Shown here one piece after another: positions 5,308 to 13,174 of a stretch of DNA of 32,000 nucleotides (the first letter of the stretch is position 1; each line of letters begins with the position of its first letter). The stretch lies in NCBI GenBank assembly GCA_034530615.2, contig JAVRCV020000052.1, forward strand, positions 122,559-154,558, read 5' to 3'. The translations under genes and the position numbers were made by a program. Source of the stretch: Aulosira sp. ZfuVER01 (GTDB lineage: Bacteria > Cyanobacteriota > Cyanobacteriia > Cyanobacteriales > Nostocaceae). Below the pieces are notes generated by a model. That model was not told the DNA's origin. It searched no databases and saw nothing but the letters and a program-made list of their open reading frames with translations.

Positions 5308-5724
5308 ATGACTAAACCAATAGTTTGGGTACATGGAGACTGTCTAAGTCCCCACAATCCTGCACTCCAACAATATCCTAACGTTCCAGCCATCTGGGTT
5401 TGGGACGATGCGTTGATAGAAGAATGGCAACTGAGTCTCAAACGCATTACCTTTATCTACGAATGCTTGCTAGAGTTACCTGTGGAAATTCGGCGTGGTA
5501 ATGTAGCCCAGGAAATTGTCGCCTTTGCTCAAGAGCATGATGCCGATTTAGTTGTTACCACAGCAAGTCCTAGCCCGCGCTTTGCGAATATCTGCAAGGA
5601 AGTTGAATCTGCTTTAGCTATGGAAGTGCTAGAGGTGGAACCGTTTTTTGATTACGACGGCTATATCGATCTGAAGCGGTTCTCTCGCTATTGGAAAGTT
5701 GCCGAGAAGTATGTTTTAGAATAA
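5308..5724 (+). CDS. Small protein resembling the N-terminal alpha/beta domain of photolyase/cryptochrome; function unknown
   Basis: The pattern IVWVHGDCLSPHNPAL...AIWVWDD...RITFIYECLLEL...IRRG...EIVAFAQEHDADLVVT recalls the W-x-R-x-DLR-x-DN-x-AL ... FI-x-D ... L-x-sL-x-L ... G layout of photolyase N-terminal domains. No FAD-binding helical domain follows. The assignment rests on recall only. Confidence 0.4.
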   Translation: MTKPIVWVHGDCLSPHNPALQQYPNVPAIWVWDDALIEEWQLSLKRITFIYECLLELPVEIRRGNVAQEIVAFAQEHDADLVVTTASPSPRFANICKEVESALAMEVLEVEPFFDYDGYIDLKRFSRYWKVAEKYVLE

Positions 5725-5841: not shown

Positions 5842-6174
5842 TCAATCCAACCTACTCATCTGCTCATTAATGGAGTTCAAAGGCTCATTAACGGAGTAAA
5901 AAGCCTCATTAACGGAGCAAAAAGCCTCGTTCACGGAGCTAAAAGCCTCATTAACGGAGCTAAAAGCCTCATTCACGGAGTAAAAAGCCTCGTTCACGGA
6001 GTAAAAAGCCTCATTAATGGAGCTAAAAGCTTCATTAACGGAGTAAAAAGCCTCATTAACGGAGCTAAAAGCCTCGTTCACGGAGTAAAAAGCCTCATTA
6101 ATGGAGCTAAAAGCCTCGTTCACGGAGTAAAAAGCCTCATTAATGGAGCTAAAAGCCTCATTAACGAATATCAA
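5842..6174 (-). CDS. Possible heptad-repeat protein (NEAF[S/Y/C]S[V/I])n encoded by the 21-bp repeat; coding status uncertain
   Basis: The minus-strand frame is open across the whole array. The position 4 and 7 polymorphisms are synonymous in this frame (AAT/AAC, GTT/GTG). Against coding, the only start after the upstream in-frame TAG (6223-6225) is a TTG at 6172-6174, and there is no ATG. Confidence 0.3.
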   Translation of the reverse strand: MIFVNEAFSSINEAFYSVNEAFSSINEAFYSVNEAFSSVNEAFYSVNEAFSSINEAFYSVNEAFYSVNEAFSSVNEAFSSVNEAFCSVNEAFYSVNEPLNSINEQMSRLD

Positions 6175-6353: not shown

Positions 6354-6809
6354 ATGGAACCAATAACCATCGGTGCGATCGCTCTTTTAACTTTAATCGG
6401 CAATAAGGTCATCGATTGGTCAACAGAAAAGGCTTTGGATGCTGGTTTAGACAAAGCCAAGCAAGTTCTTAAAGCTAAATCACCTGAAACAGCCGCCGCT
6501 TTAGAAACCGCAGCCGCACAAGCAGCCTTACCACCAGGAGAACGAGAATATATTGGTGAAGCTGTGTTGGTAGAAGAGGTAAAAAAAGCAGCAGAAGCAG
6601 ACTCGGAAATTAAGGAAGCTGTCGAAGCATTAGGAAATCAAGCCAGTACTGCTGCACAAGCTAACCCAGAACTGGCAAAGGCTATTGCAGAGTTAACCGC
6701 TGCTATTAAAGCGCAAAGTCCGACAACGGTAGAAAACTGGCAAGGTATAAATATCAAAGGTGGCGAGAATAGTATCAGTAATCCCACATTCAACTTTGGC
6801 AGCAAATGA
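6354..6809 (+). CDS. Small helical protein with an N-terminal hydrophobic helix and a C-terminal G/N/Q-rich motif shared with the adjacent NLR (Bell/HeLo-like executioner candidate)
   Basis: The N-terminus is MEPITIGAIALLTLIGNKVIDW, followed by an A/E/K-rich helical body. The C-terminus is ENWQGINIKGGENSISNPTFNFGSK. The TGA stop overlaps the ATG of the next ORF (ATGA at 6806-6809). Confidence 0.8.
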   Translation: MEPITIGAIALLTLIGNKVIDWSTEKALDAGLDKAKQVLKAKSPETAAALETAAAQAALPPGEREYIGEAVLVEEVKKAAEADSEIKEAVEALGNQASTAAQANPELAKAIAELTAAIKAQSPTTVENWQGINIKGGENSISNPTFNFGSK

Positions 6810-9800
6810 CCAACGAGAATTGGCAAGGGATAAACATTAAGGGTGGCGAGACTAACATCAACAACCCAATCATCAATTTTGGGTCATCACAACAGACTTC
6901 TCCACCAAATATCCCCAACAATTTAATTTACAAAGGCGCGGTCGAGTTTGTTGGGCGAGAAAATGAACTTACCGATATCCATCAGAAATTGCAGCAGTCG
7001 GCTAACGTAGCAATTTCGGCGGTAGCTGGGATGGGTGGTATCGGCAAAACAGAACTAGCAACCCAGTACGCATTAAGACATGAAGCTGATTATCCTGGCG
7101 GTATCTGCTGGCTAAATGCAAGAGAATCAGAATTAGCAGCTAGCATTGTGCAATTTTATCTGTTGTACATTGGTCAAGAAATCCCAAAAGAATTGGGGGG
7201 AAAACTGCTGAACCTCCAAGAACAAGTACGGTGGTGTTGGCAGCATTGGCAACCATCTGAGGGTTTGGTGTTGGTAGTATTAGATGATGTCACTAATTTA
7301 GAGAATCTGCGAGAATTACAACCAACAACCAACCGCTTCCGGGTACTCATCACCACCCGCTTACGCAATCTCAACCGCAATTTTGTCAAGGAAATTTCCT
7401 TAGATGTACTCCCGGAAATCAAAGCTTTAGAACTGCTAACAGCTTTTGTAGGTGAAAAGCGAATACAACGGGAAGAAACAACAGCTAAACAATTGTGTCA
7501 ATGGCTGGGATATTTACCCTTGGGGTTGGAATTAGTCGGACAGTATTTAGCTGAAGATCCAGATTTATCCTTAGCAGAAATGTTGGAACGGCTGAAAGTG
7601 CAACGCATAGAGGATGAAGCACTAGAACGGAGACAGCCAACCCTGAGTGCAGCACAGCTGGGAGTGAAAGCCGCCTTTGAATTAAGCTGGCGAGAACTGG
7701 ATGAAAAAACTCAGCTTGTAGGTGCGTTGTTGAGTTTATTTGCTCCTGATGTTATACCTTGGCAATTGGCAGAGGCTACCAGTGAGTTGCTGAATTGGGC
7801 AAAGGCAGATGTAACGGAAGCGAGAAAGCAACTCTACAAACGCCATCTCATTCAAAGATTAGAAGATACAAACGCTTGTTATCAAATTCATCCATTAATT
7901 CGACAATTTCTCCAAGGAAAATTTGGACAAATTCCTCTCATTACTGGCAAGGAAGAGTTAGGAATGGAATTCAAACAAGCTTTTGCAACTGCGATGGTAG
8001 CAAAGGCAAAAGAAATTCCTAAAACTCCCACCCGTGAATTTATTGAGTCAATACAAGGTACTATTCCCCATGTCCAAGAAGTTGCCCAGAACTTAATTCA
8101 TGCCGTCAAGGATGAAGATTTAACTTGGGTATTTGTTGGCTTGGGTAATTTTTATGAAGGACAGGGTTTGTATGCGTTAGCAGAACCTTGGCGTATACAA
8201 TGTTTATCAACAGTCAAAACTCGTTTGGGAGAAGAACATCCCGAAGTTGCTACCAGCCTCAACAACTTGGCTAATCTCTACGAATCCCAAGGAAATTACA
8301 CCGCAGCCGAACCCTTGTTTCAGCAAGCTTTGGCAATGAGAAAACGCCTGCTGGGAGAAGAACATCCCAACATTGCCCAAAGCCTCAACAACTTGGCTAA
8401 TGTCTACGAATCCCAAGGAAATTACACTGTAGCTAAACCCTTGTATCAGCAAGCTTTGGCAATGTATAAACGCCTGCTGGGAGATGAACATCCCCACGTC
8501 GCCACCAGCCTCAGCAACTTGGCTAATGTCTACTATTTCCAAGGAAATTATACTGTAGCTAAACCCTTGTATCAGCAAGCTTTGGCAATGAGAAAACGCC
8601 TGCTGGGAGATCAACATCCCGACATCGCCACCAGCCTCAGCAACTTGGCTAATCTCTACTATTCCCAAGGAAGGTACTCCGAAGCCGAACCTTTGCATCA
8701 GCAAGCTTTGGCAATGAGAAAACGCCTGCTGGGAGATCAACATCCCGACACCGCTACAAGCCTTATCGACTTGGCTGATCTCTACTCTTCCCAAGGAAAT
8801 TACACCGCAGCCGAACCCTTGTATCAGCAAGCTTTGGCAATGCATAAACATCTGCTGGGAGATGAACATCCCCACGTCGCCATTAGCCTCAACAGCTTGG
8901 CTAATCTCTACTCTTCCCAAGGAAATTACACCGCAGCCGAACCCTTGTATCAGCAAGCTTTGGCAATGCATAAACATCTGCTGGGAGATGAACATCCCCG
9001 AGTCGCCACCAGCCTCAACAACTTGGCTAATCTCTACTATTCCCAAGGAAGGTATGCCGATGCCGAACCCTTATATCAGCAAGCTTTGGCAATGAGAAAA
9101 CGGCTGCTGGGAAATGAACATCCCCGAGTCGCCACCAGCCTCAACAACTTGGCTAATCTCTACAAATCCCAAGGAAATTACACCGCAGCTGAACCTTTGT
9201 ATCTGCAAGCTTTGGCAATGAGTAAACGCCTGCTGGGAGATGAACATCCCGATGTTGCCGCCAGCCTCAACAACTTGGCTTTACTCTACTCTTCCCAAGG
9301 AAATTACACCGCAGCCGAACCCTTGTATCAGCAAGCTTTGGCAATGCATAAACATCTGCTGGGAGATGAACATCCCCACGTCGCCATCAGCCTTAATAAC
9401 TTGGCTTTACTCTACTCTTCCCAAGGAAATTACACCGCAGCTGAACCTTTGTATCTGCAAGCTTTGGCAATGAGTAAACGCCTGCTGGGAGATGAACATC
9501 CCGACATCGCCACCAGCCTTAACAACTTGGCTTATCTCTACTCTTCCCAAGGAAATTACACCGCAGCTGAACCTTTGTATCTGCAAGCTTTGGCAATGAG
9601 TAAACGCCTGCTGGGAGATGAACATCCCGATGTTGCCGCCAGCCTCAACAACTTGGCTTTACTCTACTCTTCCCAAGGAAATTACACCGCAGCCGAACCC
9701 TTGTATCAGCAAGCTTTGGCAATGCATAAACATCTGCTGGGAGATGAACATCCCCACGTCGCCATCAGCCTCAACGACTTGGCTTTACTCTACTATTCCC

Positions 9801-9934
9801 AAGGAAATTACGCCGCCGCCGCACCCTTGTATCTGCAAGCTTTGGCAATTTTTGAGCAAAAATTAGGTGTCGATCATCCTCGTACAGTTAAGTGTCGTCA
9901 AAATCTTGAACTTCTTCATGCTGCTAACTCTTAA
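6806..9934 (+). CDS. NLR-like STAND ATPase: N-terminal short signalling motif + NB-ARC + TPR array
   Basis: Residues 4-27 are ENWQGINIKGGETNINNPIINFGS. NB-ARC motifs are present: P-loop GMGGIGKT (7028-7051), Walker B LVLVVLDDV, RVLITTR, GYLPLGLELVG (GLPL-like) and YQIHPLIRQF (MHD-like). These are followed by 13 full 42-aa TPR units plus a C-terminal cap. Confidence 0.92.
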   Translation: MTNENWQGINIKGGETNINNPIINFGSSQQTSPPNIPNNLIYKGAVEFVGRENELTDIHQKLQQSANVAISAVAGMGGIGKTELATQYALRHEADYPGGICWLNARESELAASIVQFYLLYIGQEIPKELGGKLLNLQEQVRWCWQHWQPSEGLVLVVLDDVTNLENLRELQPTTNRFRVLITTRLRNLNRNFVKEISLDVLPEIKALELLTAFVGEKRIQREETTAKQLCQWLGYLPLGLELVGQYLAEDPDLSLAEMLERLKVQRIEDEALERRQPTLSAAQLGVKAAFELSWRELDEKTQLVGALLSLFAPDVIPWQLAEATSELLNWAKADVTEARKQLYKRHLIQRLEDTNACYQIHPLIRQFLQGKFGQIPLITGKEELGMEFKQAFATAMVAKAKEIPKTPTREFIESIQGTIPHVQEVAQNLIHAVKDEDLTWVFVGLGNFYEGQGLYALAEPWRIQCLSTVKTRLGEEHPEVATSLNNLANLYESQGNYTAAEPLFQQALAMRKRLLGEEHPNIAQSLNNLANVYESQGNYTVAKPLYQQALAMYKRLLGDEHPHVATSLSNLANVYYFQGNYTVAKPLYQQALAMRKRLLGDQHPDIATSLSNLANLYYSQGRYSEAEPLHQQALAMRKRLLGDQHPDTATSLIDLADLYSSQGNYTAAEPLYQQALAMHKHLLGDEHPHVAISLNSLANLYSSQGNYTAAEPLYQQALAMHKHLLGDEHPRVATSLNNLANLYYSQGRYADAEPLYQQALAMRKRLLGNEHPRVATSLNNLANLYKSQGNYTAAEPLYLQALAMSKRLLGDEHPDVAASLNNLALLYSSQGNYTAAEPLYQQALAMHKHLLGDEHPHVAISLNNLALLYSSQGNYTAAEPLYLQALAMSKRLLGDEHPDIATSLNNLAYLYSSQGNYTAAEPLYLQALAMSKRLLGDEHPDVAASLNNLALLYSSQGNYTAAEPLYQQALAMHKHLLGDEHPHVAISLNDLALLYYSQGNYAAAAPLYLQALAIFEQKLGVDHPRTVKCRQNLELLHAANS
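8140..9900 (+). repeat. 126-bp tandem array encoding the TPR units of the NLR (approximate bounds)
   Basis: The period is exactly 126 bp; for example the CAT of the HP dipeptide falls at 8237 and at 8363. Positions 9167-9393 are identical base for base to 9545-9771, a 227-bp match at an offset of 378 bp (3 units). Confidence 0.9.
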
Positions 9935-11410: not shown

Positions 11411-11773
11411 AAAATTCGTAATTCAACACGTTTCAGTCAGGGTCTAAATCTTGTTCTGAAACTTAAGCTAAGTGTAGCCAAAAGGCAATTCCCATCATAA
11501 TCAAAAGGTGACGAATCTGCCTGTACCAATCAGCAATCTGTAGGCTATGCTTTTAAGCATAGGGCAAACACATATTTTTTAGCTGTTCAAAACATGAAGA
11601 ACAGTTAGAGTAATTTGCATGACATGATGCTCAGAAAAATTTTGTGACATTGGTCATGCTTTGCGTAAATCCTGTTGTATTTTTATCGGCAATCAGCTAA
11701 CAGAGGGGAAATTTACAATCACAAGGCTTTTGCCCTGCTGTTAAACAGGATTGACTTGAGAGGTATTTCATCA

Positions 11774-13174
11774 ATGAATAAAACTTCCCAGACGCAAAGC
11801 AGCGCCAGTATTTCCCTATTGGGCAGAATCAATTTAAAAGTTACAAAAAAGAAAATTTTATTCACTTCCCTTGTCTTATTTGTGGCTTTACTCAGTGTGG
11901 GTGGTGTGTGGTTTTCTAGCAGGTATAAGTTTGCTAATAAAATGGCAATCAAACTACAAGAACTATCTAATGCTGAGTATCCTGCTAATCCGGCTCTATT
12001 AAGTAAAAACTTCCAAAGATATTCTAGCCGTAAATTAACCATTATCAAGAGAGATGCTACTCACTTTGATTTTGTGTTAGAGCCAACAAACACAAAAACA
12101 GCAAAAATAGTCATCAAAAATGTTGATCTAAAATTATTAGTACCTAAAGTACCAGAATGGGTTAAAAAAGACAAAGATTTAGAATTAATTGCTTTTGTCG
12201 AACGGGAATGGAACAGACAGCAAGTAAGTTTTCCGGCTAACTCAGAAAATATAGAAATTAGTGGCGGTGATGGTTTTGAAAAGCAAAATCTCTATGAAAT
12301 TGCTTTAAGCAACAATTGCTTAAATGCAGGATTTTGGGAAATTGCACTTTTTACTAAAGAGGATGGCAATAAATCTCTTTATTATCAAACTTGGTTTACC
12401 TTCCCCATAGGACATTACAAAAATATCTTTGAAAAGATTAATAAAATATCTTATTGGCAGTATTGGTGGAGATTAGAACACTGGCAAGAACCCAGTGATT
12501 CTATTATGAGAAATAATCTGCTAAGAAATATAATCGATCAAAAAGAAGCTCCCGTTAATTTTCCTCTAGATGAAAGAATAATTGCATCCGGAGAACAGAG
12601 TAGAAAAATCAGAACTACCTTAACGAAAAACCTCACAACTTGGAGAGATTTTTACAGCAATAAACAAGAAATTAAATTTGCGGCTTTTCAACCACCAGGA
12701 TTTTATAACCCTGACCAAATTTGGAATACTCAATACTGGAGAATAGGTAAATTTGAAAAAGCTATTTTGAAAAACATTAAGCCTGTGAATAATGACACAA
12801 CCTTACAGGAAATTGAGTTATTATTCACTGATACTAAGACTGGTGAAAAAAATAGATTATTTATCAGTGGTATTAATTTCAAAGATTTGCCTAGTTTGGC
12901 TATTTCAGATTATGCTAAGGGCTTAACTATGCCTCTAGGAATTGGGGTTCCGCCATTTTTGCAAAGCTACGAAGAATTAAACAAGAATCATCCAGATGAA
13001 AGCCCTTACTTTAGTTTCTTGCTAGATTCTCAAGATAGATGGATCAATCATCACCAATTAGGAGTTGATGGTTCAATCATGCATCTGGATAAGAACAACC
13101 CCAATCTTTTGCATCTTTACTTACTTTCTTATGAACGAAATACTTTAATTGCTCATTTTTTGGTGAATCTATAG
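11774..13174 (+). CDS. Hypothetical membrane-anchored protein, AT-rich, with no recognisable domain
   Basis: Long uninterrupted ORF with one N-terminal TM helix (ILFTSLVLFVALLSVGGVWF). I prefer the ATG at 11774 (MNKTSQTQ...) to the track's TTG at 11675. It is visibly more AT-rich and K/N/I-rich than its neighbours. Confidence 0.7.
   Translation: MNKTSQTQSSASISLLGRINLKVTKKKILFTSLVLFVALLSVGGVWFSSRYKFANKMAIKLQELSNAEYPANPALLSKNFQRYSSRKLTIIKRDATHFDFVLEPTNTKTAKIVIKNVDLKLLVPKVPEWVKKDKDLELIAFVEREWNRQQVSFPANSENIEISGGDGFEKQNLYEIALSNNCLNAGFWEIALFTKEDGNKSLYYQTWFTFPIGHYKNIFEKINKISYWQYWWRLEHWQEPSDSIMRNNLLRNIIDQKEAPVNFPLDERIIASGEQSRKIRTTLTKNLTTWRDFYSNKQEIKFAAFQPPGFYNPDQIWNTQYWRIGKFEKAILKNIKPVNNDTTLQEIELLFTDTKTGEKNRLFISGINFKDLPSLAISDYAKGLTMPLGIGVPPFLQSYEELNKNHPDESPYFSFLLDSQDRWINHHQLGVDGSIMHLDKNNPNLLHLYLLSYERNTLIAHFLVNL

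Follow-up and report, generated by a model that had tools for sequence, protein, structure and literature searches.

The nearest described relatives of the locus treated here are the BASS7 gene pairs, in which a small helical effector of the Bell family ends in a short motif, and the NB-ARC/TPR receptor of the NLR type encoded next to it begins with the same motif. Seven such pairs, all of them cyanobacterial and with motifs such as PTIINENWQGINIKGGTNTINNNTFNF and SENWQGINIKGGEPTIKDNT, were listed by Dyrka et al. 2020 (Supplementary Table 2; bioRxiv 10.1101/2020.01.06.895854). The locus itself lies in a stretch of 32,000 nt (the window) from Aulosira sp. ZfuVER01, a cyanobacterium of the Nostocales (contig JAVRCV020000052.1, positions 122,559 to 154,558, forward strand). 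Two adjoining open reading frames (ORFs) in this stretch, ORF-A and ORF-B, are almost certainly a BASS7 Bell/NLR pair. They share with the published pairs the motif consensus ENWQGINIKGG.NTI.N.TFNF, the Bell effector, the NB-ARC/TPR receptor, the collinear and overlapping genes, and a host among the Nostocales. The window pair is absent from the 2020 list. The published pair OUL32057/OUL32058 of Nostoc sp. 106C occupies the same chromosomal position (ThiS-orf138-Bell-NLR-TldD); the window pair has the canonical ENWQGINIKGG half of the motif, whereas the syntenic Nostoc pair has a QGVITTGG variant. The window motif also has N-P where most BASS7 members have N-N or G-N, and its receptor has a longer TPR array (14 units) than the published pairs. 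The BASS study is reportedly also available in a J Mol Biol version.

A similar arrangement is known from fungi. In HET-S/NWD2 of Podospora anserina, with the HRAM motif, the effector has a C-terminal motif and the adjacent NLR an N-terminal one, and templating is proposed to free a membrane-targeting N-terminal helix. The parts are different from those in the window, with HeLo in place of Bell and NACHT-WD in place of NB-ARC-TPR. HET-S has two pseudo-repeats whereas ORF-A has one copy, and the motifs are without sequence similarity.

Among bacteria, the Bab/Agp system of E. coli ECOR25 (BASS11) pairs a small helical protein, related to Bell and ending in an amyloid motif, with a TPR-containing sensor that is encoded next to it and begins with the same motif. 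It has been shown to be an amyloid-controlled abortive-infection defence (Ibarlosa et al. 2024, bioRxiv 10.1101/2024.11.07.622273). Unlike the window receptor, the Bab/Agp sensor, with the architecture TPR-GreA/B-C-PIN, is not an NLR; the motif is of another family, and the genes sit in a prophage defence island. The effector-associated domain (EAD) adaptors of NTP-dependent conflict systems (Kaur et al.; PMC8195603) resemble BASS7 in that one module, present on both effector and sensor, links separately encoded partners. However, EADs are globular and ~90 residues long, whereas BASS7 has 24 residues and is disordered in a monomer model.

The shared motif and its two carriers

The two copies of the motif (Table 1) have 19 of 24 residues in common. 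Their BLOSUM62 local score is 111, compared with 25.6 ± 5.5 (maximum 61) in 5000 composition-preserving shuffles, and the similarity is real and far beyond chance. No third copy is found in the six-frame translation of the window. Eleven of the 19 identical residues are encoded by different synonymous codons. At the nucleotide level the copies agree at 51 of 72 positions, distributed as 22/24, 19/24 and 10/24 over codon positions 1, 2 and 3, and the Nei-Gojobori proportions of synonymous (pS) and nonsynonymous (pN) differences are 1.03 (saturated) and 0.12. Because synonymous sites are saturated while pN stays this low, the codons indicate that selection on the peptide, and not recent DNA duplication or gene conversion, keeps the copies alike. 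The original prediction for this locus had given the coordinates, the residues, the identities and the synonymous differences, all of which are exact on re-reading the sequence; its argument for peptide selection over recent duplication is borne out by pS, pN and the third positions.

To which family the motif belongs can be seen from a profile hidden Markov model (HMM) made from 11 published BASS7 sequences only and searched against the six-frame translation of the window. It matches only the tail of ORF-A and the N-terminus of ORF-B, the next-best window segment having E 0.85. The window motif sequences group with the seven published pairs, and OUL32057/OUL32058 share the motif flanks with the window pair (FNFGSK-stop and NFGSSQQ). 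The layout is that of BASS7 as well: a C-terminal copy on the Bell protein, an N-terminal copy on the NB-ARC/TPR neighbour, both genes on the same strand and overlapping by 4 nt, in a member of the Nostocales, the family being one of multicellular Cyanobacteria. In BASS7 pairs the two genes lie within 5 kb and are as a rule collinear. Since a profile from published sequences alone finds both segments, the motif is assigned by sequence to BASS7, already published in 2020. The original prediction had proposed this comparison with published BASS motifs, and its suggestion of a perhaps undescribed variant has to be given up. Its recognition of a BASS-type, NLR-associated layout stands, supported by the BASS7 profile, the Bell homologue, the NB-ARC and TPR domains, the recurrent co-varying pairs and the terminal motifs.

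ORF-A is 87% identical to OUL32057.1 (P0005), the Bell/BASS7 protein of Nostoc sp. 106C in the published supplementary table, and its exact sequence is deposited as MDZ8050969.1, a hypothetical protein of Aulosira sp. ZfuVER01. It has 36 homologues, and every organism-named one is from the Nostocales. The Bell domain has been described as helical and ~100-120 residues long; it opens with a hydrophobic helix, and its second or third residue is acidic (Dyrka et al. 2020). ORF-A, which starts M-E-P-ITIGAIALLTLIG, fits this description in its helical domain, its N-terminal hydrophobic helix and its acidic residue 2. An AlphaFold2 model based on the homologue alignment (A1) has six helices over residues 3-121, with block-mean predicted local distance difference test (pLDDT) values of 61-85. 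The tail (residues 123-151) is modelled as disordered, with pLDDT 36, and the mean for the whole model is 67.6. No family in Pfam, NCBIfam or PADLOC matches ORF-A, and only sub-threshold noise is seen (Phasin_2, ApoLp-III, OspC). By homology and by the model, ORF-A is a Bell-family helical protein with a disordered BASS7 tail.

ORF-B has the motifs expected of an NLR-type NTPase: Walker A GMGGIGKT (7028-7051, residue 75), Walker B LVVLDD (residue 156), and IHPL (residue 361, which lies beyond the Pfam NB-ARC match). No DNA-binding domain was found in ORF-B in the Pfam search. The TPR units are very alike. Tandem Repeats Finder reports 12.9 copies of a 126-nt period at 8226-9849, with 88% matches; compared in pairs, the units are on average 71% identical in amino acids, some of them fully so, and the differences cluster at ~13 of the 42 positions. 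Copy number differs between syntenic loci, with 4.8 copies in Aulosira sp. DedQUE10 (L001, 7873-8483) and 6.9 in Nostoc sp. 106C (L004, 7873-8740). In fungal and bacterial NLRs, according to the literature, repeats are highly conserved internally and rapidly reshuffled, and the ORF-B array matches this pattern. The domain matches identify ORF-B as an NB-ARC/TPR receptor with the second BASS7 copy within its first 27 residues. The exact ORF-B protein is missing from the protein collection searched, in which the exact ORF-A is present.

Recurrence of the pair and other BASS7 partners

Related loci were collected with one genome per species, which gave 27. In 18 of these the two-copy layout is seen, the next ORF, 0-237 nt downstream of the Bell motif, having a second copy at its N-terminus, and 15 of the 18 have a Walker A motif 67 to 82 residues after the second copy. 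Two of the loci (L004 and L009, the latter OYE01691/OYE01692) reproduce published pairs. The motif varies jointly on the two partners: for example, QGVITTGGQTTVKGSTFNFGS occurs with QGIITQGGKVIVQDSTFNFGS, and INFKNANPTISNNTFNF with INFKDSSPTISNNTFNF. When the motif scores of cognate partners are summed the total is 1806, compared with 1487 ± 53 for permuted pairings (z = 6.0), and none of 20000 permutations reaches 1806. This excess points to co-evolution of the two sides; had the motif been duplicated once, ahead of the separation of these lineages, neutral divergence would not give it.

Placement of the motif was examined with a back-translated DNA seed, ENWQGIN, scanned in viral and metagenome sequence (the loci analysed being L028-L114). 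Of 94 seed matches, 28 extend to a full BASS7 motif and 66, including all 7 viral ones, have the heptapeptide only. All 28 full copies are terminal, lying at most 25 residues from a C-terminus or at most 8 from an N-terminus. Eighteen are at the C-terminus of an ORF of ~130-190 aa; the other ten stand at the head of a long ORF, 3-8 residues past the in-frame stop before it. The viral contigs (L028-L034) contain no BASS7 among their seven matches, and with this seed no BASS7 decoys encoded by phages are apparent; one globular phage protein family accounts for five of the seven (...VEAF-ENWQGINY...), a chance heptapeptide. The original prediction had proposed a scan for paired occurrence and had named, among the findings that would count against it, a motif within a common globular domain and homologous loci without pairing. 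What was found is the reverse in both cases, with every full copy terminal and two thirds of the related loci (18/27) paired.

BASS7 is also carried by a partner of another kind. In Brasilonema and Scytonema the product of the gene after Bell/BASS7 is 258 aa long, has BASS7 at its N-terminus and has no NTPase. In homologues, the C-terminal domain of this protein (~200 residues) has Pfam EAD1, or other segments rich in G/N/Q, fused to it instead. Its AlphaFold2 model is a confident beta-rich domain, with block-mean pLDDT mostly 85-96. The best Foldseek matches in the PDB are staphylococcal leukocidin or hemolysin-type pore-forming toxins (E 7e-5 to 2e-3), with a Foldseek probability mostly of 1.0 and at least 0.90 throughout, but with TM-scores of just 0.24-0.41. 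Judged by these fusions, BASS7 behaves as an interchangeable adaptor module on effectors. The effector-associated-domain adaptor logic that had been put forward for the locus gains support here, in that BASS7 and EAD1 interchange at the N-terminus of a homologous partner protein.

Several other arrangements were seen in the same scans. In L095 the gene for the 258-aa partner is followed, with a 23-nt overlap, by one for a 645-aa protein (2245-308, minus strand) with pentapeptide repeats at both ends. The centre of this protein has ~12 near-identical repeats of ~33 aa (LPPELLGEALAAAREIQSESIRADALRALAEK), and an NTPase motif is absent; it may be the sensor of a three-gene unit. In L045 (1771-2800) the NLR after the Bell/BASS7 gene has decayed, what is left consisting of a 43-aa mini-ORF with BASS7 only and a Walker A motif (GMGKST) in another frame. 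Bell/NLR units with different tail motifs can cluster within a few kb, as in L018 and L051. In Aetokthonos (L018, ~3840) there is a second pair with the motif INIGGDVKGVSAYDISGGSITQGDIS, while L051 has two tandem units with an in-frame UGA (6330 and 10408), one with BASS7 and one with another motif.

Proposed mechanism and competing explanations

The locus probably represents an amyloid-signalling unit of two genes, Bell and NLR, that belongs to the BASS7 family and is found in a filamentous cyanobacterium of the Nostocales. For its mode of action, a reasonably good case can be made for amyloid-templated cell death by analogy with fungal HET-S/NWD2, the BASS1 and BASS3 motifs that have been tested, and E. 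coli Bab/Agp (BASS11). In the literature BASS1 and BASS3 show prion behaviour in Podospora and form fibrils in vitro, and the NLR side converts the Bell side. By the same scheme, a trigger ligand would be sensed by the TPR array of ORF-B, and the NB-ARC domain would then oligomerise, clustering the N-terminal BASS7 segments. The clustered segments would nucleate a cross-beta fold, and this fold would template the BASS7 tail of Bell, presumed to be the more abundant protein. The N-terminal hydrophobic helix of Bell would be freed and the membrane damaged, and the cell of the filament would die, as abortive infection or altruistic death.

A number of observations weigh against this account. Experimental tests in the literature searched are limited to BASS1, BASS3 and BASS11, with no BASS7 peptide among them. 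There is no recognisable defence island around the pair, whose neighbours are housekeeping genes (ClpP, DnaJ, PaO, ThiS, TldD, CoaE). ORF-A is not covered by any PADLOC model. When the ORF-A structure model (mean pLDDT 67.6) was compared with the PDB by Foldseek, no match had E < 1, and a PDB sequence-profile search with alignment A1 gave none with E < 0.1; these searches thus gave no link in fold between ORF-A and Bab, HeLo or MLKL.

The competitor that fares best keeps the two partners and dispenses with the amyloid. The motif would be a homotypic adaptor, making an ordinary stoichiometric contact between Bell and NLR, for example by beta-strand pairing, with no self-propagation. The replacement of N-terminal BASS7 by the globular EAD1 in relatives of the 258-aa partner agrees with this, since it implies that the modules are functionally interchangeable, as does the range of amyloid tests in the literature, which does not include BASS7. 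However, the ~24-residue length, the G/N/Q-rich composition and the strand-turn pattern are those of prion- and fibril-forming motifs, the tail of ORF-A is disordered in the monomer model, and the related BASS1, BASS3 and BASS11 are amyloids. A purely stoichiometric adaptor is considered unlikely.

A second possibility is that ORF-B is a regulatory STAND/TPR protein of the AfsR or MalT type without a cell-death role, that ORF-A is a membrane or phasin-like protein, and that the motif is a localisation or sorting tag. Weak matches of ORF-A to Phasin_2 and ApoLp-III, the NCBIfam AfsR model, which ORF-B matches in part and far under the cut-off, and the housekeeping type of the neighbours would fit such a role. 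All of these matches are below curated cut-offs, however, a DNA-binding domain is absent from ORF-B, and the motif is restricted to the layout of effector C-terminus and sensor N-terminus, which makes a tag very improbable. That the shared peptide is a functionless, passive remnant of DNA duplication or gene conversion between neighbours has in its favour the short distance between the copies (83 nt, start to start), but with third positions agreeing in 10 of 24 codons, pS saturated, pN at 0.12, and a pairing that is conserved across genera and co-varies, it has next to no likelihood, and a recent event of either kind is ruled out by the codon evidence.

Genomic setting and sister loci with an in-frame UGA

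The stop codon of ORF-A and the start codon of ORF-B overlap in an ATGA, which suggests from the sequence that the two genes are co-expressed. Among collinear Bell/NLR pairs, 42% overlap (Dyrka et al. 2020, bioRxiv 10.1101/2020.01.06.895854). A -1 frameshift fusing ORF-A to ORF-B was considered and rejected: a slippery site is absent, and the ORF-B frame is open for just 9 codons before its ATG. The window genes around the pair encode two ClpP proteins, DnaJ, a PaO/Rieske oxygenase, ThiS/MoaD, TldD/PmbA, CoaE and CobA-HemD, and the order ThiS-orf138-Bell-NLR-TldD is common to the window, Aulosira sp. DedQUE10 and Nostoc sp. 106C. The ORFs flanking the locus, 5308-5724 (138 aa) and 11675-13174 (499 aa), match nothing in Pfam at E <= 1e-5; the shorter of them is also kept upstream of the pair in L001 and L004. 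A 21-nt tandem repeat (5863-6166; 14.5 copies, 83% matches) ends 187 nt upstream of ORF-A and is kept in position, with differing copy number, in the syntenic L001 (5616-5814) and L004 (5567-5826). A spurious minus-strand ORF of 110 aa (5842-6174, with the heptad VNEAFSS) is a product of this repeat. No Rfam family matches the window.

Table 1. Positions of the window pair and of related features in other loci (window coordinates unless a locus is named)
Feature	Position	Strand	Description
ORF-A	6354..6809	+	151 aa; Bell-family protein (predicted), BASS7 motif at C-terminus
Bell helical domain	6354..6716	+	ORF-A residues 1-121; N-terminal hydrophobic helix MEPITIGAIALLTLIG, acidic residue at position 2
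BASS7 copy 1	6732..6803	+	ORF-A residues 127-150 of 151, ...TTV-ENWQGINIKGGENSISNPTFNFGS-K-stop; profile HMM E 1.8e-12, 42.8 bits
ATGA overlap	6806..6809	+	ORF-A stop / ORF-B start, 4 nt; translational coupling layout, from sequence
ORF-B	6806..9934	+	1042 aa; NLR-type receptor (predicted), BASS7 - NB-ARC - 14 TPR units
BASS7 copy 2	6815..6886	+	ORF-B residues 4-27, MTN-ENWQGINIKGGETNINNPIINFGS; profile HMM E 1.2e-6, 24.1 bits
NB-ARC NTPase domain	6959..7612	+	Pfam NB-ARC, residues 52-269, E 2.1e-15
TPR array	8165..9931	+	14 units of 42 aa (126 nt) each; Pfam TPR_12 1.3e-247; high internal conservation
258-aa non-NLR partner	L016 6465-7241; L017; L021 6492-7268		N-terminal BASS7
258-aa non-NLR partner	L095 2999-2223	-	N-terminal BASS7
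In-frame UGA loci	L019 6412; L020 4450; L022 6436; L023 6397; L024 6496; L025 6496; L027 6178; L051 6330 and 10408; L054 7467; L133 1149; L136 3454; L138 1617		Bell-motif ORF and NLR in one frame
In-frame UGA loci	L098; L116	-	Bell-motif ORF and NLR in one frame

Nine of the 27 related loci seemed to be without a partner motif. In eight of these the ORF for Bell and its motif ends in TGA, and the same frame continues into the NLR. A census of 51 non-redundant Bell-like genes has 33 of the two-copy type, 15 one-copy genes with an in-frame UGA, and 3 that are unclassified, one of which (L008) is two-copy in the locus scan. The stop is TGA in all 15 one-copy loci, and non-overlapping two-copy loci use TAA or TAG. 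The codon after the TGA is CTA in 10 loci, CTG in 2, CTC in 1 and ATA in 2. Walker A is found 49-56 codons past the stop in 12 of the 15, and none of their NLRs has a motif copy of its own. For example, the Gloeotrichia NLR (L136) is 81% identical to ORF-B in an alignment that begins at post-stop residue 12; the Bell-UGA-NLR junction of this locus is at L136 3001-3630 (CP051187, 4450171-4450800). In the eight loci examined for start codons, the first in-frame ATG, GTG or TTG comes no earlier than codon 30-45, a point within the conserved F[IV]GRE.EL..LH block or past it. Directly after the stop, pN/pS is 0.63 in the NLR frame, the two remaining frames having 1.09 and 1.18.

From the stop codon onward, the nucleotide sequence is conserved over ~45 nt. 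In an alignment of 10 of the 15 loci (A6), a 5-bp stem begins 8 nt after the UGA; all stem cells are paired, compared with at most 61% in register-shifted controls, and compensatory double changes occur in four of the five pairs. L054, L098 and L116 have only a short variant stem. The residues encoded across the stem vary (PPERERV, SSSGERT, SSGEAPT, SSGRGTD), so that it is the RNA that is constrained. A second stem may exist, in which a GGG of the loop would pair with a downstream CCC; it is invariant, so no covariation signal is available from it. The element has no match in Rfam and is neither a SECIS nor a known recoding element, and no description of it was found in literature searches. 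Natural sense-codon fusions of Bell to NB-ARC are absent from the best 150 of 222 Bell clusters.

Programmed UGA readthrough is a tentative explanation for the one-copy sister loci, and a serious candidate. Termination would yield the free effector with its motif, and rare readthrough a Bell-motif-NLR fusion able to seed it. The alternatives are selenocysteine insertion, non-AUG re-initiation, and a motif-less NLR that is truncated at its N-terminus. In RNA viruses, type II readthrough signals consist of UGA-CUA or UGA-CGG and a stem-loop ~8 nt downstream (Firth & Brierley 2012, PMC3542737). The sister loci resemble these in the UGA-CUA (10/15) and in the stem that starts 8 nt past the stop in A6. 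They are unlike them in having a bacterial host, with RF2 instead of eRF1, and a short hairpin, and readthrough is here a prediction from sequence. In one two-copy locus (L105, 3263-3400) the NLR retains the hairpin element after its own BASS7, with no stop (NF-ISS-ERERVKSNP); this locus may be an intermediate between the two architectures. The two-copy layout may be one of two genetic solutions for placing the same amyloid motif on effector and sensor. A covariance model of the hairpin element finds nothing in the window, and the in-frame UGA and its hairpin, while a lead for the family as a whole, do not belong to the window pair.

With the Aulosira pair, a published system gains a further clear example. 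Both of its genes are annotated as hypothetical, so that it adds annotation and not a new concept. Its value is as an experimental candidate, since the BASS7 motif is highly regular and the literature searched contains no test of it. The co-varying cognate pairs across many genomes are natural specificity variants for cross-seeding. If readthrough is true, the sister loci would show structured, programmed readthrough of a stop codon in a bacterial cell, and this would explain many apparently orphan Bell proteins that have a motif-less NLR as their neighbour.

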